Source: a virus. From it: DNA of 64,000 nt. A model generated the notes under the pieces. That model was not told the DNA's origin and ran no database searches. It saw only the letters and a program-made list of their open reading frames with translations. Where the stretch lies: positions 68,825 to 132,824 of the IMG/VR virus record IMGVR_UViG_3300047557_003310. The stretch is one strand, 5' to 3'. A program made the position numbers and the translations under genes. How positions within the stretch are numbered: position 1 is the first letter of the stretch; the number at the start of each line of letters is the position of its first letter. Below, in pieces: positions 1,635 through 47,269 of this stretch.

Positions 1635-2963
1635 ATGTCTGATCGTATCGTAGAAAGTCTAAATGAAATGAAACAGATTTATTTGGAATCTGTTTCAGGC
1701 AATGTCATTTCAAATAGAGATGAATATCTAGAGTATGTTGAAGAAAAGTATAAGACATCAAAAAAAGAAGACGAAGATAAAAAAGAAAGTGAGAAAGAAG
1801 AAAAAGACGACGACGAAAAAGATGAAGACGAAGATAAGGAAGGTGAAGAAGACGAAAAACCAAAAAGATGGTGGGATGATGATGGCGATGGAGTTGGATA
1901 TGAAAAAGACGAAGTAAAAAGTAGCTTCAAAAAGAAAACTAAAAAAGTTGATGAATCACTTTCAAACTGGAGAAGTGATCTATATGAAGCAATAGGAAAT
2001 ATTGATGATGAAATTGAAGGATCAAAGCAAAGACAAGTTAAAGAAAAAGCAAACATTCATAATAAAATAGACATTAATCCTAATGTTAATATTGGTGAGA
2101 GTGTAGAACTTTCAGAAGAATATATTGGAGAAGTTATTGATATTGCTGCTCAATATTTTTATGATAGGGGATTGAATGAGGAAGGTCTCGCCATGGTAAT
2201 TGAAGACCTTGGCCACGAAAAATTCATTGAGTATGTATTCTATATTTCTGAAGATTTTATGTTGAGTGAGGCAAGAACTTTACTTGGTAAAAAGTCAAAT
2301 CCAGCCACAGGAAAAGACAGAGGTATATCATTGAAAGCTGCTCCGGGAAAAACGACTCGAGCAGCGGCAGAAAAATATGGTACCACTAGAAGATTTTCAT
2401 CATCTAGACCAACTGGGACAGTACGAAAAAAAATTGTAAAAGATCAAGGTGATAATTCTGCTAAAACTGCAGCTGAAACTCAACCAAAAGGTATAGATAA
2501 AGTTGTTAGTCAGGTTAAAAACTTTGCTACCTCACCTGACACTAAAGCTAGATTAACTAATATGATTGGTGCGGCTGTAAATAAAGCAAAATCCGATATT
2601 GGTAGAACGGGAATGGCTGCAGTTCATGCTACTGATGCTGCCAAGAAAGCAAGACAAAGAGGTGCATCTGGAGCTGGTGCAGCAGGCGCAGCTGCTGGTA
2701 CATTTATTCGTGGTTTGATGCGTGGTTCTACTGCTACCGGAGTCAGAGAAGAAATCGAAGCATTTCTTCTAGAAAAATCAGAAAGTCAACAACAACAAAA
2801 ATTGTTTGGTCTTGCACTTTCAGTAAAAAGAGGTGAAACCCCAAGATCTGAAGTAAGTCAGGAAGTTCTTGATATTGTCGATAAAATGTCTGAAGCTGAG
2901 ATTCGCAAATTTGCGAAAACTTCACATGAAGGACTTCCCAAAAAAGTAGAAGAAAAGGACTGA
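1635..2963 (+). CDS. Hypothetical protein with acidic N-terminus, Ala/Gly/Lys-rich middle and DUF3008-like C-terminus
   Basis: 442-aa ORF; C-terminal KSESQQQQKLFGLALSVKRGE...FAKTSHEGLPKKV resembles DUF3008; several LxE sites. Confidence 0.6.
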   Translation: MSDRIVESLNEMKQIYLESVSGNVISNRDEYLEYVEEKYKTSKKEDEDKKESEKEEKDDDEKDEDEDKEGEEDEKPKRWWDDDGDGVGYEKDEVKSSFKKKTKKVDESLSNWRSDLYEAIGNIDDEIEGSKQRQVKEKANIHNKIDINPNVNIGESVELSEEYIGEVIDIAAQYFYDRGLNEEGLAMVIEDLGHEKFIEYVFYISEDFMLSEARTLLGKKSNPATGKDRGISLKAAPGKTTRAAAEKYGTTRRFSSSRPTGTVRKKIVKDQGDNSAKTAAETQPKGIDKVVSQVKNFATSPDTKARLTNMIGAAVNKAKSDIGRTGMAAVHATDAAKKARQRGASGAGAAGAAAGTFIRGLMRGSTATGVREEIEAFLLEKSESQQQQKLFGLALSVKRGETPRSEVSQEVLDIVDKMSEAEIRKFAKTSHEGLPKKVEEKD

Positions 2964-2964
2964 T

Positions 2965-3390
2965 ATGTCTATCACATTTAATCAATTTCTTGCTAGGATA
3001 GACGAGGCATACCCAACTTGGGGATCTAGCCCACGAAGAGATAGACCTACAGGACAATTGCCACAGAGATCATCTACTAGAGGTAGAACTGGACCACAAT
3101 TAGATTGGAGAGCACCAGAAACAAAACCTAAGGAATCAACACCCCCAAAACCTTCTGGTGGAATAACTTTTGATAGTCGTTCAAGTAATCGACGAGTTGT
3201 GACAAAACCAACTCCAGAAAAAGTTGAATTGGGATTGAAAAAACTTGGTGGAAACACATCTAAACCTTATCTACCATTTAATCGACGGATGCAAAAAGTA
3301 TTTGTTCCAACTTCCAATTCTGGTATAGAATTGACTGGCGCAGCAAAAAAATCAATGATACAAAAATTAAGAGCACAGAAAAATAATTAA
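2965..3390 (+). CDS. Basic low-complexity hypothetical protein
   Basis: 141-aa ORF right after upstream stop; N-terminus MSITFNQFLARIDEA. Confidence 0.6.
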   Translation: MSITFNQFLARIDEAYPTWGSSPRRDRPTGQLPQRSSTRGRTGPQLDWRAPETKPKESTPPKPSGGITFDSRSSNRRVVTKPTPEKVELGLKKLGGNTSKPYLPFNRRMQKVFVPTSNSGIELTGAAKKSMIQKLRAQKNN

Positions 3391-3463
3391 TTCTATACTA
3401 CCAAAGCATCATCGATTCATAAATATCTTTGGAGCATATCCAAAAATTATTAAGGAGGACATC

Positions 3464-3634
3464 ATGGGAGTATTAGTAGGAGTTGTAAAACCACTTCTTT
3501 TCGCAGCATTAAATTCTTGCCACACAAAAAGACTTGTATGCGAACTTCTAGATCGTTATGTACAAACTACAGACAATGATGTAGATAATCTGATTGCAAC
3601 CACAGTTAGAACTGCACTTCTAAAAAATTGCTGA
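3464..3634 (+). CDS. Small hypothetical protein (56 aa)
   Basis: Strong SD AAGGAGG, then MGVLVGVVKPLLFAALNSC...LLKNC; below ORF-track cutoff. Confidence 0.7.
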   Translation: MGVLVGVVKPLLFAALNSCHTKRLVCELLDRYVQTTDNDVDNLIATTVRTALLKNC

Positions 3635-3650
3635 TATTTAATTTCAACTA

Positions 3651-3685
3651 AAAAGGGAGAGGATATTTTTGCCTCTCCCTTTTTT
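3651..3685 (+). terminator. Intrinsic terminator
   Basis: AGGGAGAGG...CCTCTCCCT hairpin followed by a T run. Confidence 0.75.
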
Positions 3686-3745
3686 ATTAAACATCATAAC
3701 GACATAAATATTTTATAGATTAAATAGTTTTTAAAGGTAAAACGA

Positions 3746-4273
3746 ATGGCACTCTGGGGAAATAACGACAACATTTCATCCAATGGAAAAGTTTGGCTAA
3801 ATTATGTCACAAGAATTGTAACTGCCACTGGAACTAACTTTGGTGCAGTTGGTGCTGCATCAACTGGAGATGTTATTAGATTTGGAGTTGTTGGTGGAAC
3901 ATATTTTGGTGATGCAGTAATTGTTGGTATTGCCAGTACAACTCAACTATCTATTGCATCTACTGCAAACTTAAGTGGTGCAGCTATTGCTAACACAGAT
4001 TTTAGCGTATCACAACTTCCAAAGTACCTAACTCTTGATAGTCAGTATAGCCAGACTCATACAAATTACGAGCCATATGTGGCTGGTGTATCTACTGCTG
4101 GAATTGCTGCAGCTCAAAATACTAAATATTCTCCAGCTCACGGTGGCTGGGTAGGAATCATGACTTATGTTGATTCCCAAGGACAATATAGAGTTAAGAC
4201 AGAAACATTCGTAGCAATGTCTGGTATCCAAACAGGTAATACTCCTTTGTATGATGCAAATCCATTAGTGTGA
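3746..4273 (+). CDS. Probable virion structural protein
   Basis: MALWG N-terminus, Gly/Thr/Ala-rich, HGGWVG..RVKTETFVAMSGI motif typical of cyanomyovirus structural ORFs. Confidence 0.55.
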   Translation: MALWGNNDNISSNGKVWLNYVTRIVTATGTNFGAVGAASTGDVIRFGVVGGTYFGDAVIVGIASTTQLSIASTANLSGAAIANTDFSVSQLPKYLTLDSQYSQTHTNYEPYVAGVSTAGIAAAQNTKYSPAHGGWVGIMTYVDSQGQYRVKTETFVAMSGIQTGNTPLYDANPLV

Positions 4274-11131: not shown

Positions 11132-11181
11132 AAACTGAGGTTGAATGTTATATAAATAAATATAACATTCAACCTCAGTTT
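11132..11181 (+). promoter_or_regulatory. 21-bp perfect inverted repeat with T4-type late promoter at its apex
   Basis: AAACTGAGGTTGAATGTTATA/TATAACATTCAACCTCAGTTT; TATAAATA at 11151-11158; ATG at 11185. Confidence 0.8.
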
Positions 11182-15385: not shown

Positions 15386-15467
15386 GGGTAGGTGTCCGAG
15401 TGGTTAATGGAGGCGGACTGTAAATCCGCTGGCTCTGCCTACGGGGGTTCAAATCCCTCCCTGCCCA
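15386..15467 (+). tRNA. tRNA-Tyr(GTA)
   Basis: GCGGA-CTGTAAA-TCCGC anticodon arm, variable arm, GGTTCAAATCC. Confidence 0.93.
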
Positions 15468-15583
15468 CTTGACAATCAAATCCTTAACTGGTATGATTGT
15501 CTTATGAGCAACGGAGGTCCACACTTCGTATAAGTCTCACCCCTCCCATGCCTCTCAACGATGCACAAACAGGGAGGTCTCTT

Positions 15584-15656
15584 GGGCAAGTAGCATAATG
15601 GATAATGCAGCATCCTTCTAAGATGTCGATTGGGGGTTCGAGTCCCTCCTTGCCTG
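15584..15656 (+). tRNA. tRNA-Arg(TCT)
   Basis: GCATC-CTTCTAA-GATGT anticodon arm, GGTTCGAGTCC. Confidence 0.9.
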
Positions 15657-15766
15657 TTGGAGATTATCTCCATATATAAAAGTGATAGAGGGTAAGTCCC
15701 TGTTATATCCTTATGAGGTATATCACACTTACTCCATCTCATTTAAATATTGTATTTTCTTAAATC

Positions 15767-15958
15767 ATGGCAAAAAACAAAACAATCAACACTTCTTATG
15801 ATCTTGGTTATTCTGCCAGGAATGAAAATCATGATACAATTCGTGATATTCGAATTAATTTTGAAAATCCTGATAGTGAATTTCTTATGGAGAATCTAAA
15901 TACTTGGCTTCGAGCAATTGGTGTTGATCTTGAGGTTGTAGTAAAGAAGGTGGTTTGA
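15767..15958 (+). CDS. Small hypothetical protein within tRNA cluster
   Basis: 63-aa ATG ORF filling an intergenic gap. Confidence 0.55.
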   Translation: MAKNKTINTSYDLGYSARNENHDTIRDIRINFENPDSEFLMENLNTWLRAIGVDLEVVVKKVV

Positions 15959-15964
15959 TTTATC

Positions 15965-16084
15965 TAGTCCCAGCGACACCGTTGGTAACGGTCTTGCAGT
16001 GGTGGTGCCACGCGATCCAGAAGGAGATTAATCTCTGAGGTAGGCGTATCAAAACTTAAGGTTCGAATCCTTATGCTGGGACTA
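15965..16084 (+). ncRNA. Enlarged tRNA-like RNA of unknown class
   Basis: 10-bp terminal stem TAGTCCCAGC/GCTGGGACTA, canonical T arm TAAGG-TTCGAAT-CCTTA, non-canonical D and anticodon arms. Confidence 0.6.
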
Positions 16085-16143
16085 ATAAATGATTTTATTA
16101 ACACTTGACAATTAAACTTAAATAGTTTATAATTGTCTCATAA

Positions 16144-16214
16144 GCGGGTATAGTTTAGGGGTAAAATGCCATCCTTCCAAGTTGGAGTCACCGGTTCGAT
16201 TCCGGTTACCCGCT
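16144..16214 (+). tRNA. tRNA-Gly(TCC)
   Basis: GCGGGTA/TACCCGC acceptor, CTTCCAA loop, GGTTCGATTCC. Confidence 0.9.
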
Positions 16215-16265
16215 CTGAACCTTCGGGTTCTATAAATAATGGTAGAACAATAAAACTTCTACCAA

Positions 16266-16568
16266 ATGCCAAAAGAAACTAGAACTTATGCTGATCGTAG
16301 AGAAGCAAACAAAGCAAGCGTTATTAAACGACGCAAGCAAAACAAACTTCTTTTGGTAGAATATAAAGGTGGCAAGTGTGAAAGATGTGGATATGATAAG
16401 TGCGTCTCTGCCTTAGAATTTCATCATCTCGACCCCACTACCAAGGAAACTAAAAACCTTGGGACCACCGCTGCCATCGAAAAACAGAAGGCAGAAGCAG
16501 ATAAATGTATTCTTGTATGTGCTAACTGCCATCGAGAAATACATTACGAACAATATAATGGGGTGTAG
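16266..16568 (+). CDS. HNH endonuclease in tRNA cluster
   Basis: CERCG...LEFHHLDP...CILVCANCHREIH; TATAAATA at 16231-16238. Confidence 0.85.
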   Translation: MPKETRTYADRREANKASVIKRRKQNKLLLVEYKGGKCERCGYDKCVSALEFHHLDPTTKETKNLGTTAAIEKQKAEADKCILVCANCHREIHYEQYNGV

Positions 16569-16631
16569 CTCAGCGGTAGTAGCGGGATGCTGTTAACATC
16601 TAGGTCGCAGGTTCGATCCCTGCCGCCCCAG
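16559..16631 (+). tRNA. tRNA-Asn(GTT)
   Basis: GGATG-CTGTTAA-CATCT anticodon arm, GGTTCGATCCC. Confidence 0.9.
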
Positions 16632-16665
16632 TTGGAAGGTCTGGAAATGTCTGATTCTATCATAA

Positions 16666-16835
16666 GAGTCGGGATCATCATATCCGACTCACGAAATCCT
16701 AAGTTTTCTTAGGTCGGGGACTTGATCACCCCTGCTCGTATTGTAGGTGCCAAAACCTCTCCCCAGGTCGATGTTTAAACTGGTGCTTGGGTGAATGTCA
16801 AGAGTGGGGACATAGGTAAAGTTTCCAACACCTAC
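16666..16835 (+). ncRNA. Candidate multi-stem structured RNA(s) between tRNAs
   Basis: GAGTCGG/CCGACTC, CCTAAG/CTTAGG, GGGG/CCCC, GTAGGTG/CACCTAC, TCCCC/GGGGA stems; no credible ORF. Confidence 0.5.
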
Positions 16836-16840
16836 CACAA

Positions 16841-16912
16841 CCTCTGGTAGTCTATTGGTAAGGACGGGTGGACAACACACATGGAAACTAGGTTCGATTC
16901 CTAGACAGAGGC
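16841..16912 (+). ncRNA. tRNA-like RNA or pseudo-tRNA with collapsed anticodon arm
   Basis: Acceptor CCTCTG/CAGAGG, D arm with TGGTA, T arm CTAGG-TTCGATT-CCTAG; anticodon arm only GTG-GACAA-CAC. Confidence 0.65.
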
Positions 16913-16995
16913 TTAAGTATTTTTATAACTCACCTTGTAAAAGGTGAGTTTTTCTTGTATAAATAATAAGATCTAAAAATACATCATGAGAAAAA

Positions 16996-17247
16996 ATGTT
17001 AAAGATAAGATGCAAAGAGTGCAATACTGAAGTTTCTGCACATCCTGGACAATCCAAATCATGTGGATGTCCAAATATGGCTACAATCAAGGGAGATAAA
17101 ATATCTGCACTAGATTTGTCTAAGATAGTTATGTTGAATTCTTATGTACAAAAGGAATCCAACAGAGTTTTAACTAACGAAGATATTATGTGGCAAGAGG
17201 CAAGACGCCAAAGAAAAGTTCGTAAATTGGATTTTGAAGTTCGTTAA
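16996..17247 (+). CDS. Zn-ribbon-like conserved cyanophage hypothetical protein
   Basis: CKEC...CGCPN; C-terminal RKVRKLDFEVR; TATAAATA upstream. Confidence 0.7.
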   Translation: MLKIRCKECNTEVSAHPGQSKSCGCPNMATIKGDKISALDLSKIVMLNSYVQKESNRVLTNEDIMWQEARRQRKVRKLDFEVR

Positions 17248-17255
17248 TAGAGTAA

Positions 17256-17337
17256 AGAGGATAGCACTAATGGTTAGTAACACGCCTTGAAAGCGTGGCC
17301 AGGTTCACGCCTGATGGTTCGATTCCATTATTCTCTG
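17256..17337 (+). tRNA. tRNA-Ser(TGA)
   Basis: CACGC-CTTGAAA-GCGTG anticodon arm, long variable arm, GGTTCGATTCC; A at position 8 is atypical. Confidence 0.8.
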
Positions 17338-17359
17338 TTAATAAATAGCTAAAAAACTC

Positions 17360-17731
17360 ATGAGATTTAAAGAGTTTCTTGCTGAATCAAAAAAGGTTCA
17401 AGTTAAAGATTTTATGCATTTTGTAAAAGATGAACTTGGATTGCCATCATTACCAAAAGTAATTATAATAGATGACCCACAGTTTTCTATTGACAATAAG
17501 ACATTTGGTTGTTTTAATTTAGGTAGTGATGAAATTAAAGTTCAAATAGCACAGAGACATCCATTGGATGTGTACAGAACACTTGCACATGAACTTGTTC
17601 ATTATCACCAAAAACAAAGTGGTAAAGAAATGAGTGGTGAAGATGGATCTGAGTGTGAAAATGAAGCTAATTCTTTAGCAGGAGTTCTGTTAAGAAAGTA
17701 CACAAAAGGTATCAAAAATCACGGTTATTGA
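17360..17731 (+). CDS. Small zincin-like metallopeptidase (HExxH)
   Basis: RTLAHELVHYHQ...ENEAN; N-terminus MRFKEFLAE. Confidence 0.7.
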   Translation: MRFKEFLAESKKVQVKDFMHFVKDELGLPSLPKVIIIDDPQFSIDNKTFGCFNLGSDEIKVQIAQRHPLDVYRTLAHELVHYHQKQSGKEMSGEDGSECENEANSLAGVLLRKYTKGIKNHGY

Positions 17732-17813
17732 TTGATTTGTTTTTGTATCAAGACAAATAGTTGACATTAAGAAGTTACTAGTTATAATTACTTATTATGT
17801 GCCACTGTTTCAA

Positions 17814-17962
17814 TGGATAGTAGAACATTTGAAAACTGGGTTAAAATAAAAAATACATTTGAACAGTCTGGTAATACAGATAATATGTTTTATAAAAGAG
17901 CATGTGAAATTGTAAAAACTGGTAAGGATCCCTTAGCGAAATTTCTTGGAGATGAAAAATGA
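17814..17962 (+). CDS. Small hypothetical protein
   Basis: MDSRTFENWVKIK...SGNTDNMFYKRA; coordinates approximate. Confidence 0.55.
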
Positions 17963-18162
17963 TGGAACCTCCCGACGAATTTATTACTCGTTCAGAAGTT
18001 CAGGAGATGATTGATGCTGCTATACGAAGACACAACCGTAATGCTTCTATCATTAGCATGTGCGTCGGTTGGGTGGTTCTTGCTCTATTTGCTGAGGGAT
18101 TACTAAGACTTATTGGTGTTATTCCACCTTTATTTCCATGGTTTAATATTTCTTTAATCTAA
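17959..18162 (+). CDS. Small membrane protein
   Basis: EVQEMIDAAIRRHNRNASIISM followed by a hydrophobic helix. Confidence 0.65.
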   Translation: MMEPPDEFITRSEVQEMIDAAIRRHNRNASIISMCVGWVVLALFAEGLLRLIGVIPPLFPWFNISLI

Positions 18163-18353
18163 TGATAACAATTACAGAAAAAGATTTAAAACAACTACAA
18201 GAAATAATTTTAAGACAAAAAATGGAAGAACTTTTCGAAGAACCGTCATCTTATGAGGATGAAGAATATGAATAGTTTAATATTAAATACTATAATAATA
18301 TTTGGACTTGTTGGAATATTTCTTTATTGGGGACTCAATAGTGCGTATCAATA

Positions 18354-18560
18354 ATGAAAAAAGAACACGAATGCTGGAATTTTGTAATGTCATCATTTGC
18401 TAGGTTGTATGGGGTTAAGAAAGTTATAAGTGAAGAAAAGTTTCATGAGATTGCACTTCAGTGGTGTGATGATCATGATTATGTTTGCGATATTCACTTG
18501 GATAGTTTGGCTAAAGTTGATACATACTTCAGGAAAATTTACGAGGATTGGGAAAAATGA
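18354..18560 (+). CDS. Hypothetical protein
   Basis: 68-aa ORF, stop overlaps gnd start (ATGA). Confidence 0.6.
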   Translation: MKKEHECWNFVMSSFARLYGVKKVISEEKFHEIALQWCDDHDYVCDIHLDSLAKVDTYFRKIYEDWEK

Positions 18561-19579
18561 GAGTAGGATTGATTGGACTGGGACGAATGGGCGAAGGAAT
18601 GTCTCGTCGTATGATGAAAGCAGGAATAGAAGTTTGGGGGTATCGTAGAAACTATGAAAAAGCAAACAAAGCGTATGAAAACGGATATGTTAATGGTATT
18701 ACAACTTCTATACAAAGCCTTGTTCAAGTAGTTAAAGGAAATAATAAACCAGGCATTTTTCAAATGGTTGTGCCGGCAGAAACAGTAGAGGAAACGATTA
18801 ATGAGTTACTACGATATTGTAGTGAAGGAGATATTATTATTGATCATGGCAATAGCAATTTTAAAGACAGTCGGAAGAGAGCAGAACGTCTGGCAAAAGT
18901 TGGTATCGAATATATTGATTGTGGCACTAGCGGTGGTGTTTATGGTTTGGATCGTGGATACTGTCTTATGGTTGGAGGTGGAAATACTGCAGTCGCCACT
19001 TGTGCGAGCATTTTTGATGCCCTCGCTCCAGGAATCAATGCTGCCCCAAGGACTCAATTTAACTCGGATGTAACATCTGCAGAGTTTGGTTGGTTACATT
19101 GTGGGGGTCCAGGTGCAGGACATTTTGTAAAGATGGTGCATAATGGTATTGAGTATGGCATTATGCAAGCATATGCAGAAGGATTTAACATCATCAAGAA
19201 CGCTAATGCAGGTGCTCAGTATGTCAGAGAAGGAGATGCAGAGGTTGCCCCTATGGCAGATCCAGAAAGTTACTGCTATGATATTGACGTTGCTGAGGTT
19301 GCTGAGTTATGGCGTCGCGGTAGCGTGGTTGGGTCTTGGTTACTTGACCTTACTGCTGATGTGCTACGCAGGGATGGTAGCCTTAAACAGTTCTCTGGAG
19401 GTGTATCCGACAGCGGTGAGGGTCGTTGGACTGTTTCTGCCGCTGTGGACTTGGGGGTTCCCGCTCCTGTCATTACTACTGCACTATTTGAAAGATTTAA
19501 CTCACGCAATCTCGGATCGTTCGGAGCAAAGATTCTAAATGGTATGAGATATATGTTTGGCGGTCATCATGTAAGATAA
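18557..19579 (+). CDS. gnd: 6-phosphogluconate dehydrogenase (decarboxylating)
   Basis: GLIGLGRMG, IDHGNS, DCGTSGG, GHFVKMVHNGIEYG, DSGEGRW, MRYMFGGH. Confidence 0.95.
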   Translation: MRVGLIGLGRMGEGMSRRMMKAGIEVWGYRRNYEKANKAYENGYVNGITTSIQSLVQVVKGNNKPGIFQMVVPAETVEETINELLRYCSEGDIIIDHGNSNFKDSRKRAERLAKVGIEYIDCGTSGGVYGLDRGYCLMVGGGNTAVATCASIFDALAPGINAAPRTQFNSDVTSAEFGWLHCGGPGAGHFVKMVHNGIEYGIMQAYAEGFNIIKNANAGAQYVREGDAEVAPMADPESYCYDIDVAEVAELWRRGSVVGSWLLDLTADVLRRDGSLKQFSGGVSDSGEGRWTVSAAVDLGVPAPVITTALFERFNSRNLGSFGAKILNGMRYMFGGHHVR

Positions 19580-19710
19580 ACATAGGAATTAATAAAATGT
19601 TTCATTTAGTGGAAACTCTTGCGGCAAGCCCATTTTTTCTTTTTCTTTGTGGGATGGGGTTGACAGTCGTTCCTTTTGCCGGTATAATGTACATACATAA
19701 TAAGAAATAA

Positions 19711-19785
19711 CGGGATGTAGCTCAGCTTGGATAGAGTGTCGCTTTTGGGAAGCGAAAGTCGCAGATTCGAATTCTGTCATCCCGA
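19711..19785 (+). tRNA. tRNA-Pro(TGG)
   Basis: CGGGATG/CATCCCG acceptor, TCGCT-TTTGGGA-AGCGA; TTGACA-N17-TATAAT promoter upstream. Confidence 0.92.
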
Positions 19786-19809
19786 CTCATATAACCTCAC
19801 TTCATAAAA

Positions 19810-20028
19810 ATGAAAGAACTAGATCAATTACAATCATATACTGTGCAGCAATTCCAAGATGAATTTGATACTCTTATGGAGAGAGTAGAAAATGGTGAAT
19901 CTTTTATTATAAAAGATGGTAAAAACAGTGCCGTCATAGTTCCATATAATGAAACTATACTAATGTCTGTAGACTCAATTCATGATGATATTGTAAAAAT
20001 TCACACAGACCATGAAGAAGCAAGTTGA
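19810..20028 (+). CDS. Phd/YefM antitoxin-like small protein
   Basis: YTVQQFQDEFDTLMERVENGESFIIKDGKNSAVIVP fits the Phd/YefM pattern. Confidence 0.5.
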   Translation: MKELDQLQSYTVQQFQDEFDTLMERVENGESFIIKDGKNSAVIVPYNETILMSVDSIHDDIVKIHTDHEEAS

Positions 20029-20073
20029 AATGACTTGACAAACAAAACCTGATATGCTATATTAGGTTATATT

Positions 20074-20147
20074 GGGAGCGTAGCTCAACTGGTCAGAGCA
20101 CAGACCTTATAAGTCTGGGGTTCTGGGTTCAAGCCCCAGCGTTCCCA
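20074..20147 (+). tRNA. tRNA-Ile(TAT)
   Basis: CAGAC-CTTATAA-GTCTG anticodon arm, GGGAGCG/CGTTCCC acceptor, discriminator A. Confidence 0.9.
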
Positions 20148-20208
20148 TAGACAGTAAAAGCTGTCTTTCATTCACAATCAATTATAGTTACTAGATCAAT
20201 CAACTCAA

Positions 20209-20424
20209 ATGTCAATTACAGAAAAATTTAAAAAAGACATGCAAGCCATTCGTGGTGCAGCAAAAGGTGACTTTTATCTAGATGTAAAAAACCCTAAACT
20301 TTACAAAAAACTTTTTAAATTTTATGAAAATCAAGGCATTGTTTTTTCCGGTGATCCATTAGATGATTATGAAATTCTAATGGAATATGTTGCACAAGAT
20401 CTGGAAACTGTGGAAGCAGCTTAA
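20209..20424 (+). CDS. Conserved cyanophage hypothetical protein
   Basis: LDVKNPKLYKK...FSGDPLDDYE. Confidence 0.65.
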   Translation: MSITEKFKKDMQAIRGAAKGDFYLDVKNPKLYKKLFKFYENQGIVFSGDPLDDYEILMEYVAQDLETVEAA

Positions 20425-20489
20425 GTCACGGAGAGACTTTAAAAGTACTGGTCGGAGCATAGTCACGGAGAGACTTTAAAAGTACTGGT
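20424..20489 (+). repeat. Two identical 29-nt direct repeats (period 37)
   Basis: AGTCACGGAGAGACTTTAAAAGTACTGGT at 20424-20452 and 20461-20489. Confidence 0.95.
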
Positions 20490-20542
20490 GGAGTCAATTA
20501 TGACCCTATTGTCACACACAAACACACATATGGAGATTAATT

Positions 20543-20755
20543 ATGTCCAAAACACCTTACGAACTTCGTTTTGAAATCTTTAAGCAAGCATATAAGATGC
20601 TTAATGATAATTTCTGTGTTGAATATGATTATGTGCGAGAATGGAATGACAATTCCATGAATACTGTCAAGATGGATCTTCCAGAATTTCCAACTCTAAA
20701 CCAAGTTCTTCAGCAAGCACAAGTGATTAATGACTTTGTTTCTGAAACGAAATAG
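20543..20755 (+). CDS. Hypothetical protein lying between structured RNA segments
   Basis: SD GGAG; MSKTPYELRFEIFKQA...AQVINDFVS. Confidence 0.75.
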   Translation: MSKTPYELRFEIFKQAYKMLNDNFCVEYDYVREWNDNSMNTVKMDLPEFPTLNQVLQQAQVINDFVSETK

Positions 20756-20850
20756 GTTTCTTGCCATTCCTTAAAAAGGCAAGTGGTGCGGATGGAGATT
20801 ACTCCCGCCTGGTTTCCAATTTCCAGTCAAAGAATTGGTGGCGTGCATGG
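20753..20850 (+). ncRNA. manA-like structured RNA (tandem pseudoknot units)
   Basis: Two GGTTTC..TTCC..AAA..GTGGYG units with CTTGCC/GGCAAG and CCAATT/AATTGG pairings around GCGG..GGAG/CTCC..CCGC; near tRNAs and upstream of a mannose-6-P isomerase-like gene, the described context of manA RNAs; family named from memory. Confidence 0.55.
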
Positions 20851-20905
20851 CAGACCTAAATTTATAAGAGGAGTTGTTTGCTCCTCTTTTTTTATATGAT
20901 TTTAT

Positions 20906-43546: not shown

Positions 43547-43580
43547 TTGACAGCCCAGAGATTTCGTGGTACTATAAATA
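43547..43580 (+). promoter_or_regulatory. psbA promoter: sigma70 -35/-10 overlapped by T4 late promoter
   Basis: TTGACA-N17-TACTAT with TATAAATA at 43573-43580; G12 run immediately upstream. Confidence 0.8.
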
Positions 43581-43655
43581 AGTCGGTGAGAGAAGTCAGG
43601 GTTTCCTGACAAACTTTATCACCGAACATTGAAAATAGAATACTTTTCTTTTTAT

Positions 43656-43751
43656 CTTGCCCCACCGAGACTAATGGGCAAGTAAAATCCGTCTCTCATA
43701 TCTTCTCTAGGGGTGAGAAGAAATATCGAACCCTGTTCGTCCCCACGAACT
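43656..43751 (+). ncRNA. PhotoRC-II-like structured psbA leader
   Basis: CTTGCCC/GGGCAAG stem with loop GAGAC pairing downstream GTCTC; TCTTCTC/GAGAAGA stem with loop GGGG; GTTCGT/ACGAAC stem with loop CCCC. Confidence 0.6.
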
Positions 43752-43773: not shown

Positions 43774-44526
43774 ATGACTGCTTCAATCGCTTCACGCCGT
43801 TCTGGCGAAAATACCTGGGAACAATTCTGTAACTGGGTGACTTCAACCGATAACCGCCTTTATGTTGGTTGGTTCGGTGTTCTGATGATTCCTTGCCTAC
43901 TTGCTGCTACAACTTGTTTCATCATCGCATTCATCGGTGCTCCTCCTGTAGACATTGATGGTATCCGCGAACCAGTTGCTGGTTCTCTAATGTACGGAAA
44001 CAACATCATCTCTGGTGCTGTTATTCCTTCTTCTAACGCAATCGGACTTCACTTCTATCCCATCTGGGAAGCAGCAAGTCTTGATGAATGGCTTTACAAT
44101 GGTGGACCTTTCCAACTTGTTGTCTTCCACTTCCTTATTGGCATTTATGCTTATATGGGTCGTGAATGGGAACTCTCTTACCGTCTAGGTATGCGCCCTT
44201 GGATCTGTGTTGCTTACAGCGCACCTGTTGCTGCTGCTTCTGCAGTATTCCTGGTTTATCCTTTCGGTCAAGGTAGTTTTAGTGATGCAATGCCTCTAGG
44301 TATTAGCGGAACTTTCAACTACATGCTTGTGTTCCAGGCAGAACATAACATCCTTATGCATCCCTTCCATATGCTTGGTGTTGCTGGTGTATTCGGTGGT
44401 TCTCTATTCAGTGCTATGCACGGTTCACTGGTGACTTCTTCACTGGTTCGTGAAACCACTGAGAATGAATCACAGAATTATGGTTACAAGTTCGGACAAG
44501 AAGAAGAGACTTATAATATCGTGGCT
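43774..44526 (+). CDS. psbA: Photosystem II D1, exon 1 (251 codons)
   Basis: [19 protein letters not shown], ends EEETYNIVA. Confidence 0.97.
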
Positions 44527-44735
44527 TGACAGAGCGGGTCACGCTAAACTGGGTGAACTGCTGGAAACCTAAGTCCTTTGTGGATATGGCAATCAGCATC
44601 CAAGTCCTAGATACATCTAGGAAAGGTTCAGAGACTACCTGAGGGATACAGTTCTCTTAATAACAGGCAAGAGCGCCCAGCACCTTTAATAGGTGAAGAT
44701 ATAGTCCAACCCTTAAGGAAACTTTTGGATAATTG
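44527..44735 (+). mobile_element. Group I intron 1 in psbA (209 nt, no ORF)
   Basis: Exon ends in U, intron ends in G; P1 GTGGCT/GGTCAC with U-G pair; core motifs AACTGCTGGAAA, AATCAGCA, AGAGACTAC, GATATAGTCC. Confidence 0.92.
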
Positions 44736-44996
44736 GCTCACGGTTACTTCGGACGACTTATTTTCCAATATGCGTCCTTTAATAACTCCCGTTCACTACA
44801 CTTCTTTTTGGCCGCTTGGCCAGTAGTTGGTATTTGGTTTACTGCCCTTGGTGTTAGCACTATGGCATTTAACCTGAACGGATTTAATTTCAACCAGTCC
44901 ATTATGAGTTCTGAAGGAAAGGTAATTAATACCTGGGCTGATGTACTCAACCGAGCAGGTCTCGGAATGGAAGTAATGCACGAGAGAAATGCCCAT
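44736..44996 (+). CDS. psbA: Photosystem II D1, exon 2 (87 codons)
   Basis: [19 protein letters not shown]...[10 protein letters not shown]. Confidence 0.95.
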
Positions 44997-45228
44997 TAGA
45001 AATGGTGGCCTTATTGAGTAATCAATAAGTGTAAATCGGGTGAATTGCTGGAAACCCTCTAAAAAATAGGGCAATCAGCAGCCAAGTCTTAGATACATCT
45101 AAGAAAGGTTCAACGACTACCTGAGAAGTTCAGTCTTCTTAATAACAGGATTAAGCGCCCGACAACCTAATAACAAAGGTTGATGATATAGTCTGTGCCA
45201 TAAGGATAGTAAACTTATGGAGTTCACG
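44997..45228 (+). mobile_element. Group I intron 2 in psbA (232 nt, no ORF)
   Basis: Exon ends in U, intron ends in G; AATTGCTGGAAA, AATCAGCAG, ACGACTAC, GATATAGTC core motifs. Confidence 0.92.
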
Positions 45229-45297
45229 AATTTCCCTCTTGATTTGGCCAGCACTGAGGCAACACCAGTTGCTCTTACTGCTCCAGCAATCGGTTGA
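45229..45297 (+). CDS. psbA: Photosystem II D1, exon 3
   Basis: NFPLDLASTEATPVALTAPAIG-stop; spliced total 360 aa. Confidence 0.93.
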   Translation, partial: NFPLDLASTEATPVALTAPAIG

Positions 45298-45379
45298 TAT
45301 AAAAACTCAATAGTGTTATAATAAGGAGACCTGCAAAGGTCTCTTTTTTATAAATAATAGTAACTATGAGCAGACCATA

Positions 45380-45994
45380 ATGAATGTGAAATATACTGAG
45401 GACGATAAAAAACTTTGGGAGAAAATGTATTTGTCTGGTCTTTCTTCTTATGAGATTTCCAGACAATTAAAAGTTCCAAAACCAACGGTATATAAACACA
45501 TAAAATCTTGTGATATTTCTAGAAATTGGTCGGAATGGCAAATAGGAAAAGAACCTTGGAATAAGGGAGTAAAAGGAGCACAAGTATCTTGGAATAAAGG
45601 ATTAACCAAAGAAACTGATGAAAGAGTTAGAAAATATGGTGAAAAGTTAAAAGGAAATAACTATCAAAATCCTTGGAGCAAAAGATATTTCGATGTGGAT
45701 TATTTGTATTTGGTTATTGTTTATCTTGAGGGTAAATTGGTTTATAAGGTGGGTAGAAGTTTTAATAAGTTATCAAACCACACTAAAAATAAATTACATA
45801 GTGTAATTAAAATATGGAAAGGAATACATTATCAAGTACATCACCTTGAAAAGTTCATTCATCAAAAATATCAAGATTATAAAATTGATTTTGAGACCAC
45901 GGACAGTGGATATACGGAGTGTTATGTGGTAGAATTACCCATAACTGAAATCATCAACCTTACAGAAAAAACATTAAAACATTATGATTACTAA
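45380..45994 (+). CDS. Putative free-standing endonuclease (HTH, WNKG repeats, C-terminal GIY-YIG/T5orf172-like domain)
   Basis: SSYEISRQLKVPKPTVYKH; PWNKG/SWNKG; YLYL...YKVGRS...E..IH...GYTE; terminator and TATAAATA upstream. Confidence 0.65.
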   Translation: MNVKYTEDDKKLWEKMYLSGLSSYEISRQLKVPKPTVYKHIKSCDISRNWSEWQIGKEPWNKGVKGAQVSWNKGLTKETDERVRKYGEKLKGNNYQNPWSKRYFDVDYLYLVIVYLEGKLVYKVGRSFNKLSNHTKNKLHSVIKIWKGIHYQVHHLEKFIHQKYQDYKIDFETTDSGYTECYVVELPITEIINLTEKTLKHYDY

Positions 45995-46207
45995 AGAAGG
46001 ATTTATTCAATCAACTGGGCTTGAACCTGAAAAGGCAGAACAACTTTACAATCATTTAAACAAAAGATTTGATGGCGATTGGAATAAAGCGGCAGAGTAT
46101 CTGGAAAGTCTTTCTTCTTACCTTCAAGGACAAGAATGAGCACTAATACCCATTGACTCCTTTGTTAACTTATGTTAACATAAATATGAGAAATTACTTA
46201 GGAGGTT

Positions 46208-47269
46208 ATGACTTCTTCAACTCTTACAAAACCTATTCAACAAAGGGGGTGGTTTGATGTCTTGGACGACTGGGTTAAACGAGATCGTTTCATATTCGTT
46301 GGCTGGTCTGGACTTCTTCTTTTTCCCACTGCTTATCTTGCTCTTGGTGGTTGGCTTACTGGGACAACTTTCGTTACGAGTTGGTACACTCACGGCTTGG
46401 CAAGTTCCTATCTGGAGGGTGCAAACTTTCTTACTGCGGCAGTTAGTACTCCAGCAGATGCTATGGGTCATTCTCTTCTGCTTCTCTGGGGTCCTGAGGC
46501 TCAAGGGGATATCGTCAGGTGGTTCCAACTTGGGGGACTCTGGCCTTTTGTGGCGCTCCACGGCGCTTTCAGCCTGATTGGATTCATGCTTCGTCAGTTT
46601 GAGATTGCTCGTCTAGTCGGTATCAGACCCTACAATGCAATTGCATTTTCTGGTCCTATCGCAGTCTTTGTTTCTGTATTCCTGATGTATCCTCTGGGAC
46701 AATCCAGTTGGTTCTTTGCTCCATCTTTTGGAGTAGCAGCAATCTTCAGGTTCCTTTTATTCCTTCAGGGTTTCCACAACTGGACCCTGAACCCCTTCCA
46801 CATGATGGGAGTTGCTGGTATACTGGGAGGAGCACTGCTCTGTGCGATTCACGGAGCAACTGTAGAAAACACTCTATTTGAAGATGGACAACAAGCAAAT
46901 ACATTCAAAGCATTTGAACCAACTCAAGAGGAAGAGACCTACTCAATGGTTACGGCTAACAGATTCTGGTCTCAGATCTTCGGTATTGCTTTTAGTAATA
47001 AGCGTTGGTTGCACTTTTTTATGCTTTTCGTACCAGTTATGGGTCTCTGGACTTCTTCTATTGGTATCATCGGTCTTGCTCTCAACCTACGTGCATACGA
47101 CTTTGTATCTCAGGAAATTAGAGCGGCGGAGGACCCAGAGTTTGAGACGTTCTACACGAAGAATATCTTACTTAATGAAGGTCTTAGAGCGTGGATGGCA
47201 CCAGTAGATCAACCTCATGAGCAGTTTGTATTTCCAGAAGAGGTTCTACCTCGTGGAAATGCCTTGTGA
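46208..47269 (+). CDS. psbD: Photosystem II D2
   Basis: [31 protein letters not shown]; SD AGGAGG; uninterrupted. Confidence 0.98.

Follow-up and report, generated by a model that had tools for sequence, protein, structure and literature searches.

A cyanophage psbA gene split by two group I introns and followed by a T5orf172-type nuclease gene: a candidate second collaborative-homing pair

A stretch of 64,000 nucleotides (nt) of viral DNA from the IMG/VR record IMGVR_UViG_3300047557_003310, referred to below as the window, carries a psbA gene, encoding D1, that is split by two group I introns lacking an open reading frame (ORF) and is directly followed by a free-standing gene for a nuclease-like protein. 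The reading favoured here, to which we would give a probability of roughly 55%, is that intron 1 and the nuclease form a second collaborative-homing pair in which the nuclease serves the intron 1 site, after codon 251; intron 2 is best read as a separate passenger and not as the partner of the nuclease. When distinct nuclease genes were counted, the nuclease was found to track intron 1 (13 of 16) more closely than introns near site 338 (9 of 19), and the assignment of partners, which we infer, is moderately supported. Collaborative homing was the term applied to the psbA genes of S-PM2 and S-RSM88, in which a group I intron is accompanied by the free-standing endonuclease F-CphI (Zeng, Bonocora & Shub 2009, as reported in PMC6083498). 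Worked examples are very few, those cited in PMC10448857 being S-PM2 psbA with F-CphI and the introns of T3/T7-like DNA polymerase genes. The present locus would add a second example from psbA, differing in nuclease family and in site.

Under the favoured reading the nuclease, a putative homing-type member of the T5orf172 branch of the GIY-YIG superfamily with a late-promoter-like motif of its own, would in a mixed infection cut an intron-less psbA at the Ala-Ala site (psbA nt 750) or close to it. Donor-templated repair would then copy intron 1, and sometimes the nuclease gene too, and the intron, or an altered target sequence, would shield a carrier from its own enzyme. Intron 2 would be an independent member of the same intron family, sited within the crowded stretch of insertions (codons 331-343) that surrounds the S-PM2/F-CphI site. 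Its most likely origin is a separate acquisition, or it may have been carried along because it is located between intron 1 and the nuclease gene.

Structure of the split psbA gene

The window comes from a T4-like cyanophage of the Kyanoviridae type, and the nearest isolate by psbA is the freshwater phage S-SRM01. Positions are those of the whole stretch, and related loci fetched for comparison bear L numbers (L001, L007 and so on), L001 being S-SRM01 (MW015081). The psbA gene occupies 43774-45297 on the + strand as three exons and two introns, and the parts of the locus are as follows.

43774..44526, + strand: psbA exon 1, codons 1-251, ending GUGGCU
44527..44735, + strand: intron 1, ORF-less group I, 209 nt (Rfam RF00028, 92.4 bits)
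44736..44996, + strand: psbA exon 2, codons 252-338
44997..45228, + strand: intron 2, ORF-less group I, 232 nt (Rfam RF00028, 104.7 bits)
45229..45297, + strand: psbA exon 3, codons 339-360 plus stop
45380..45994, + strand: free-standing nuclease-like gene, 204 amino acids (aa), an open ORF with domains assigned by profile, fold and ESM Atlas

An earlier note on this DNA, made from its letters, had placed introns after codons 251 and 338 and predicted a product of 360 aa, and on translation the joined exons do give a 360-aa D1 plus stop with zero internal stops. Its description of both introns as ORF-less and group I also holds, with matches to all 253 positions of RF00028 (1-253 of 253) well above the gathering score of 50 (E 2.1e-22 for intron 1 and 4.2e-26 for intron 2) and no ORF of 60 aa or more wholly inside either. 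These two are the only group I matches in the whole 132,824-base viral record, and both are phage-type group I introns with extra helices between P7 and P3. Intron 1 lies between the two Ala codons that precede the HGYF motif, after nt 753 of the window psbA, which is nt 750 in psbA genes of 359 codons. Intron 2 separates NAH from NFPLD, its insertion site being 9 nt downstream of the one used in S-PM2.

The splicing signals are those of group I introns, with an exon U just 5' of each intron and a terminal G at its end (G44735 and G45228). In P1 of intron 1 the exon sequence GUGGCU pairs with GGUCAC, so that U44526.G44537 forms the U.G at the splice site, and in P1 of intron 2 exon CCAU pairs with GUGG (U44996.G45005). 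The pairings GAGC/GCTC and GAAAT/ATTTC, which had been taken for guides matched to each intron's own exons, are real but are not guides: they form P10 with the 3' exons and not P1, GAGC in the P1 loop of intron 1 pairing with the first four bases of exon 2 (GCUC) and GAAAU of intron 2 with positions +2 to +6 of exon 3 (AUUUC). A shared core with compensatory changes had likewise been claimed, and the hairpins CCTAGATACATCTAGG and CTTAGATACATCTAAG are both present and compensatory; the hairpin is among the covarying pairs of an RNAalifold consensus of eight introns from three psbA sites, in which 20 of 46 predicted pairs are kept through two-sided changes. A P2 hairpin and a longer P8 are found in intron 2, and intron 1 has neither. 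Each intron opens with an in-frame stop (TGA in intron 1 and TAG in intron 2), and D1 production therefore needs the removal of both, as the earlier note had concluded in speaking of two splicing events.

Association of the nuclease gene with intron 1

A tblastn search with the nuclease against 50,697 phage records gave no match, and the family is therefore known only from uncultured contigs. In IMG/VR 16 loci were found, at 80-98% identity and each with the gene directly after psbA, and a metagenome scan added 15 close loci, again with the gene directly after psbA, and three distant ones. Fifteen of the 16 IMG/VR loci carry the site-251 intron, L009 being intron-less; three carry a site-338 intron and four an 800-nt intron after codon 109. 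For a tally by distinct gene, the window, the 16 IMG/VR loci and the 15 from metagenomes (32 loci) were reduced to 19 distinct nuclease genes by collapsing identical ones, with site states entered by hand and the distant or NUMOD3-only matches L067-L093 left out. Site 251 is visible in 16 of the 19, and intron 1 is present in 13 of these and absent from three. The zone of codons 331-343 is visible in all 19, and is empty in ten and occupied in nine (338 in six, 337 in one, 343 in one, and one cut off).

The association was also examined from the side of the introns. The exact 20-mer across the intron 1 junction occurs in 23 IMG/VR contigs, 15 of which are the nuclease contigs and two of which have a 38%-identical homologue of the same family; two more (L042 and L048) have a different downstream gene, and four end too near the intron. 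The gene behind psbA in L042 and L048 belongs to phrog_314 'homing endonuclease', with NUMOD3 repeats in L042 and a GIY..YIG-like motif, read by eye, towards the N-terminus. An exact intron 2 22-mer was found in four IMG/VR contigs, all four of which also have intron 1. Among isolates (130 phage records matching the psbA region) intron 1 occurs in S-SRM01 alone, at 98.1% identity. The intron 1 20-mer was absent from 185,579 prokaryote species genomes, and a profile search for the nuclease found only a NUMOD3-like stretch in one unrelated metagenome-assembled genome.

Intron-less carriers and the choice of target

The three intron-less carriers of the nuclease all have rare D1 substitutions no more than three codons from site 251. 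Their alleles are V250C (L009/L053) and G253A plus Y254F (L059 and L065), the latter combination occurring in L059 and L065 on diverged backgrounds with synonymous differences, and the distant nuclease homologue in L068 adjoins an N248S allele. Of the 120 D1 clusters nearest L059, 114 have the 16-residue segment at site 251 unaltered; AHAFF was seen in two of the 120 and NICAAH in one. A search of IMG/VR with the back-translated pattern of AAHAFFGR gave one stretch, which was not psbA. The same variant alleles keep the canonical HERNAHNFPLDLA around site 338. A carrier has to resist the enzyme that it encodes, and the substitutions at site 251 would therefore favour that site as the target.

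The alternative that bears most directly on this choice is that the enzyme, like F-CphI in S-PM2, has its target in the 3' zone of psbA (codons 331-343), with intron 2 as the protective element and intron 1 mobilised by other means. It is a reading that we consider unlikely. Site 338 is only ~150 spliced nt from the start of the nuclease gene, the nine occupied zones counted above include introns at 337, 338 and 343, and intron 2 is nearly identical in L066 despite a nuclease of only 69% identity. Against this, ten of the 19 distinct nuclease genes stand behind an intron-free zone with the canonical HERNAHNFPLDLA and synonymous differences only, and in L048 intron 2 is accompanied by a different downstream nuclease. 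A chloroplast intron of Ulva with a T5orf172 ORF was moreover reported at nt 750, according to the published description (PMC10151680).

Several observations count against intron 1 as the partner and must be set beside the tally. The loci are related, and the co-occurrence counts are therefore not independent events. Intron 1 is found without the T5orf172-type nuclease in S-SRM01, where an Endonuclease_7-type gene follows psbA, and in L042 and L048 with their phrog_314 genes. Window-type intron 2 occurs in eight loci, seven of which are nuclease-bearing, and it could thus be the target-site partner; it is also 96.6-99.5% identical among its carriers (L007, L008, L048 and L066), which implies that it too is mobile. 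Synonymous differences in the 3' zone could equally give immunity, and the three insertion points in that zone among carriers look like repeated disruption of a target. V250C as an escape specific to nuclease carriers was downgraded, since the allele is also present in psbA genes whose stored loci have no match to the nuclease (L095, L096 and L119, and L103 with less than 1 kb after psbA). The equation of nt 750 in Ulva with the window's Ala-Ala junction is our assumption from the standard numbering of D1.

The natural allele series, comprising intron-bearing, canonical intron-less and three kinds of variant intron-less psbA, makes the target of the nuclease testable. If target escape does drive G253A/Y254F or V250C, a selfish nuclease would be shaping the quinone-binding region of a photosystem protein.

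Mobility and mosaic identity

Intron 1 of the window is 96.1-98.5% identical to its counterparts in 19 loci, compared with 84-93% for exon 1b and 83-98% for the nuclease gene; for exon 2 the value is 77-80% in 16 of these loci and 91-97% in L007, L008 and L010. Since the intron is 96-98.5% identical between exons that are 77-93% identical, the comparison points to a recent horizontal spread of intron 1. In a 60-nt sliding comparison of the window with L012, identity peaks at intron 1 and at the catalytic half of the nuclease gene. Intron 1 is 98% identical, the sequence just upstream 90-95%, and exon 2 declines from 86% to 70%; within the nuclease gene (4001-4612 of L012) the DNA-binding half is 60-78% and the catalytic half 91-100% identical, and past the end of the gene no similarity is left. 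The ribozyme and the catalytic domain thus stand out as two islands of near-identity. It is also apparent within clusters of nucleases that are ~80% identical overall that the C-terminal 107 residues are 90-96% identical, and this mosaic suggests either domain-wise exchange or fast evolution of specificity.

The nuclease-like protein

The 204-aa protein is single-copy in the record and consists of a helix-turn-helix (HTH) region (residues 1-46), two WNKG/NUMOD3-like motifs (~59-74) and a T5orf172/GIY-YIG-like region (~105-204). A match to phrog_681 'endonuclease' was obtained in PHROGs at E 5.8e-12 over residues 94-199. In a family alignment of 22 sequences T5orf172 was matched by seven members at E <= 0.01 (best 2.8e-6) and NUMOD3 (PF07460) by three (best 1.1e-9); the window protein itself had no Pfam match to NUMOD3 at E <= 1, and many of the protein matches to its WNKG region carry PF07460. 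An exhaustive profile-free protein search returned 700 matches at E <= 0.001, most covering the WNKG repeat region alone and only a handful running end to end, at 28-37% identity. A search with residues 98-204 for named relatives, for example from algae, returned 28 close family members only.

An alignment-based AlphaFold model (mean pLDDT 75) begins with a domain of three helices, is poorly ordered in the middle and ends in a domain of beta-beta-beta-alpha-beta-alpha order; a single-sequence model of the C-terminal domain was too poor for use (pLDDT 53.7). In a wide structural search residues 1-46 matched HTH domains, among them the GcrA DNA-binding domain (Z 6.5), and a profile search of PDB sequences likewise gave HTH domains as its sole matches. 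The nearest ESM Atlas clusters to residues 98-204 are T5orf172 and GIY-YIG (score 0.92). Across the 22 sequences LYLV...YKVGRS is kept, K123 and G125 are nearly invariant and E180, presumably the catalytic Glu by analogy, is invariant. The gene is open in all copies, and dN/dS of 0.06-0.22 against nine relatives, with dS up to 0.91, indicates strong purifying selection.

Some of the protein evidence falls on the other side of the balance. The Pfam match to T5orf172 (PF10544) was 15.6 bits (E 0.023), under the cut-off of 20, and the remaining Pfam matches, to several HTH families and MUG113, were also sub-threshold. Foldseek found nothing in the PDB at E <= 0.001, and the matches of residues 106-203 to GIY-YIG folds are weak, both for At-HIGLE (Z 4.6, rmsd 3.6, 85 aligned) and for Slx1 (Z 4.4, rmsd 4.2, 87 aligned). 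The Arg that follows YIG in distant relatives (R or RR) aligns with N-H-T-K in the psbA-linked subfamily, in a loop whose alignment is uncertain, and because of this column catalytic competence is not assured. The likely identity of the protein is nevertheless a working T5orf172-type nuclease with N-terminal DNA-binding modules, to judge from sequence and models. It is not a relative of F-CphI: the F-CphI query had no match in the whole record and the window protein had no Pfam match to Endonuclease_7, and the suggestion that a different nuclease family serves this psbA was in that respect well founded.

These same features have to be weighed for the possibility, which we regard as quite unlikely, that the protein is not directed at psbA at all, being a DNA-binding regulator, a domesticated and inactive T5orf172 protein or an enzyme that cuts elsewhere (the DNA of a rival phage or another gene). 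Its linkage to psbA introns would then reflect the shared ancestry of a hypervariable slot. The unconserved Arg and the Pfam score are compatible with such a protein, domesticated T5orf172 proteins have been reported, and the slot behind psbA does hold unrelated genes: a restriction enzyme and methylase in S-RIM32, an Endonuclease_7-type gene in S-SRM01 (PF02945 at 2.3e-26, in the slot held by F-CphI in S-PM2) and the phrog_314 genes of L042 and L048. What argues for an active enzyme aimed at psbA is that purifying selection has been strong over dS up to 0.9, that E180 and YKVG are invariant or nearly so across the family, that the islands of near-identity coincide exactly with intron 1 and the catalytic domain, and that the rare substitutions at site 251 occur in intron-less carriers.

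The family of psbA introns

A nucleotide profile built from eight introns and run on the fetched loci gave 120 matches at psbA sites 61/62, 93, 109, 184, 219, 251, 331, 335, 337, 338 and 343. By this sequence comparison both window introns are members of one family with ~11 psbA insertion points and up to six introns per gene. The earlier note had regarded the two as siblings, one lineage having been retargeted to a second site. They are 68.3% identical over 202 profile columns, and each is closer to introns elsewhere in psbA: site-62 introns are 87-89% identical to intron 1 and 80-84% to intron 2, and for site-184/219 introns the values are 75-80% and 79-81%. With introns from unrelated phages (a Vibrio phage, a crAss-like phage and a megaphage) either window intron shares 66-75% identity, so that each is roughly as distant from its neighbour in the window as from these. 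A maximum-likelihood tree recovered site-specific clades in open order and did not join those of site 251 and site 338; forcing the two together cost 23.6 lnL, with p-AU (approximately unbiased test) of 0.066, so that a common clade is disfavoured and not rejected. Direct retargeting of one intron into the other is therefore unsupported.

That one intron is a recent copy of the other with a changed guide seems to us very improbable, though the common core with its compensatory changes speaks for it and the p-AU does not formally reject a common clade. A locus with a bearing on this question is L008, where the site-338 intron (3617-3848) has, in columns 88-115, the intron 1 form of the P6 hairpin together with the preceding base (CAGCATCCAAGTCCTAGATACATCTAGG). 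Intron 2 of the window differs from the L008 intron at this hairpin. Exchange of sequence between the two sites is thus possible, and the L008 hairpin may have arisen by gene conversion between introns of one gene. Apart from the identities and the tree, recent copying is opposed by the P2 hairpin and longer P8 peculiar to intron 2 and by the presence at site 338 of a second, 75%-identical type of intron (L042, L067 and L069).

Other loci show how densely psbA can be occupied. L048 (6085-9825, - strand) has six Rfam group I matches in one psbA, at sites 61, 109, 184, 219, 251 and 338, and the psbA of L042 has four. In L042 a group I intron interrupts the Met331 codon, and only 19 nt of exon (2986-3004, - strand; G CAT GAA CGT AAC GCC CAT) separate it from a diverged intron at site 338. 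A nuclease-linked intron lies inside the Leu343 codon in L057 (650-720), and near exon 3 an intron inside the His337 codon was found both in L054, with a T5orf172-type gene, and in L110, with an F-CphI-like gene. It is clear that cyanophage psbA is heavily contested, with some 11 insertion points and at least four unrelated nuclease genes in the slot behind it.

Metatranscriptome evidence on splicing

Parts of the stretch are contained in 20 metatranscriptome runs, four of which were compared as assembled contigs at 90% likeness. One X1 contig joins 44526 to 44736 exactly (depth 4.3, shorter side 35 nt). This exact skip of 209 nt is a hint of intron 1 splicing and nothing more, because an intron-less allele in the sample would look identical. 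A contig skipping intron 2 was not seen in the four runs. Contigs that cross exon-intron borders unspliced are also present, and one of 757 nt extends from intron 2 across half of the nuclease gene. Outside X1 most of that gene is without contig cover, which has no bearing on its expression. An apparent joint of 454 nt was rejected, being the site-109 intron aligned on the core that it shares with intron 1. The D1 yield of phages with such genes depends on two or more ribozyme reactions, and splicing of S-PM2 psbA was reported to be light-responsive (Puxty et al. 2018, PMC5931967).

Comparison with known systems

The system most similar in layout is that of S-PM2, in which an ORF-less intron interrupts psbA and the nuclease gene stands directly after the psbA terminator behind TATAAATA. 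The core of the S-PM2 intron is homologous to those of both window introns, with 85% identity over 126 nt for intron 1 and 79% over 162 nt for intron 2. The differences are that S-PM2 has a single intron, after HER at codon 335 in window numbering, whereas the window has two, at 251 and 338; that F-CphI is Endonuclease VII-like, whereas the window nuclease combines HTH, NUMOD3-like and T5orf172-like parts; and that cleavage was shown for F-CphI, whereas the window nuclease is known from its sequence. The parallel with S-PM2 drawn previously stands for the free-standing nuclease after psbA. Intron 2 is not at the S-PM2 site: the split after HER is found in S-PM2, S-RSM88 and S-SRM01, and that of the window comes three codons later, after NAH.

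S-SRM01 shares intron 1 at the same site and has the nearest psbA of any isolate (89% over the matched part), but has three introns, of which the first contains an ORF and follows ~codon 93 and the others are at 251 and at the S-PM2 site 335; the Endonuclease_7-type gene comes next. Over 1815-4220 its sequence has four exons, where the record annotates two partial 'D1' coding sequences and an intervening endonuclease. The paper on this phage, in the text available, discusses one intron, around ORF320 (Zhang et al. 2021, PMC8557907).

Two further systems share the nuclease family. In the phage ICP1 a free-standing T5orf172 gene adjoins an ORF-less intron of the large-terminase gene, which its authors read as possible collaborative homing or as turnover of nuclease genes (Barth et al. 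2023, PMC10448857). The likeness lies in a T5orf172-family gene beside a gene split by an ORF-less intron; phage, gene and intron are all different, and the available account of ICP1 gives no population evidence of escape alleles. The ORF of the Ulva chloroplast intron psbA-750 is reported to have a T5orf172 domain and to bear no similarity to homing endonucleases of the usual families (Liu et al. 2023, PMC10151680). From its published description this intron is in the same gene and apparently at the same insertion point as intron 1, with the same nuclease domain family, but its ORF lies inside an intron of mean length 752 nt classed as 'group I derived, B1', whereas intron 1 is 209 nt and ORF-less with the nuclease free-standing outside it. 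In its build the window nuclease resembles I-TevI-type enzymes of T4, which PMC10448857 describes in part as 'beads on a string' with a GIY-YIG-type catalytic domain, NUMOD3-like minor-groove motifs and an HTH. It differs in that the order is reversed, with the catalytic domain C-terminal, in its T5orf172 branch and in being free-standing rather than intron-encoded.

The literature found on multi-intron cyanophage psbA or on psbA with T5orf172 comprised the S-PM2 work, S-SRM01, S-CBWM1 (cited in PMC8557907) and the Ulva paper, and in this literature neither a cyanophage psbA with two introns nor a phage T5orf172 nuclease linked to psbA was found described. Compared with the known pairs the locus differs in its insertion sites, its nuclease family, its two introns and its natural intron-less carrier alleles.

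A wider and more tentative possibility is that the nt 750 Ala-Ala site and the T5orf172 nucleases belong to one mobile system that exists in two states. The split state would be that of freshwater-type cyanophages, with an ORF-less 209-nt intron and a free-standing nuclease, and the fused state that of Ulva, with the nuclease ORF inside the intron. In the pathway attributed to Bonocora and Shub, a free-standing nuclease that targets an intron insertion site reportedly moves into the intron later. Were the wider reading true, phage and Ulva would be a natural before-and-after pair for that pathway, and an exchange of psbA parasites between phages and plastids would be implied. The intron-less carriers would in that case exhibit another way of becoming immune, by amino-acid changes beside the QB-site histidine of D1.

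Surroundings of psbA and other features of the window

The elements around the two genes are as follows.

43573..43580, + strand: TATAAATA, a T4-type late-promoter-like motif upstream of psbA (motif match)
43645..43734, + strand: PhotoRC-II RNA motif in the psbA leader (RF01717, 63.5 bits; gathering score 39)
45326..45349, + strand: terminator-like hairpin GAGACC-TGCAA-GGTCTC followed by a T run (hairpin 45326-45343 plus T run, by reading)
45349..45356, + strand: TATAAATA, late-promoter-like motif before the nuclease gene, ending 23 nt before its start codon

PhotoRC-II also precedes psbA in S-SRM01, S-RIM32 and many related loci. The terminator scan listed the hairpin at 45326-45343 on the - strand only, and the T run on the + strand was read from the letters. 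The same layout of a hairpin and then TATAAATA is found downstream of psbA in S-PM2 and S-SRM01, and a promoter role for this motif would accord with what is generally known of late promoters in T4-like phages. The motif has ten matches in the window (starting at 11151, 16231, 16958, 33878, 33956, 34612, 37327, 43573, 45349 and 48411), a number not above chance (shuffle mean 8.4). All ten are on the + strand, in keeping with late promoters and a single direction of transcription in this region. A sigma-70-like sequence, TTGATA-17-TATAAT (11/12, with TG; 45294-45322), overlaps the psbA stop just before the terminator hairpin.

Behind the nuclease gene a 51-aa ORF (45984-46139) overlaps its last 11 nt and precedes psbD (353 aa, 46208-47269). 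This ORF is partly conserved in the closest loci, and in L012 the similarity ends with the nuclease gene. Elsewhere in the window, six tRNA matches are clustered in the region 15386-20852, with an 'abiF RNA' match between two of them (15542-15578, 53.8 bits), and the Rfam scan also found a wcaG RNA motif at 20752-20852 (91.2 bits).

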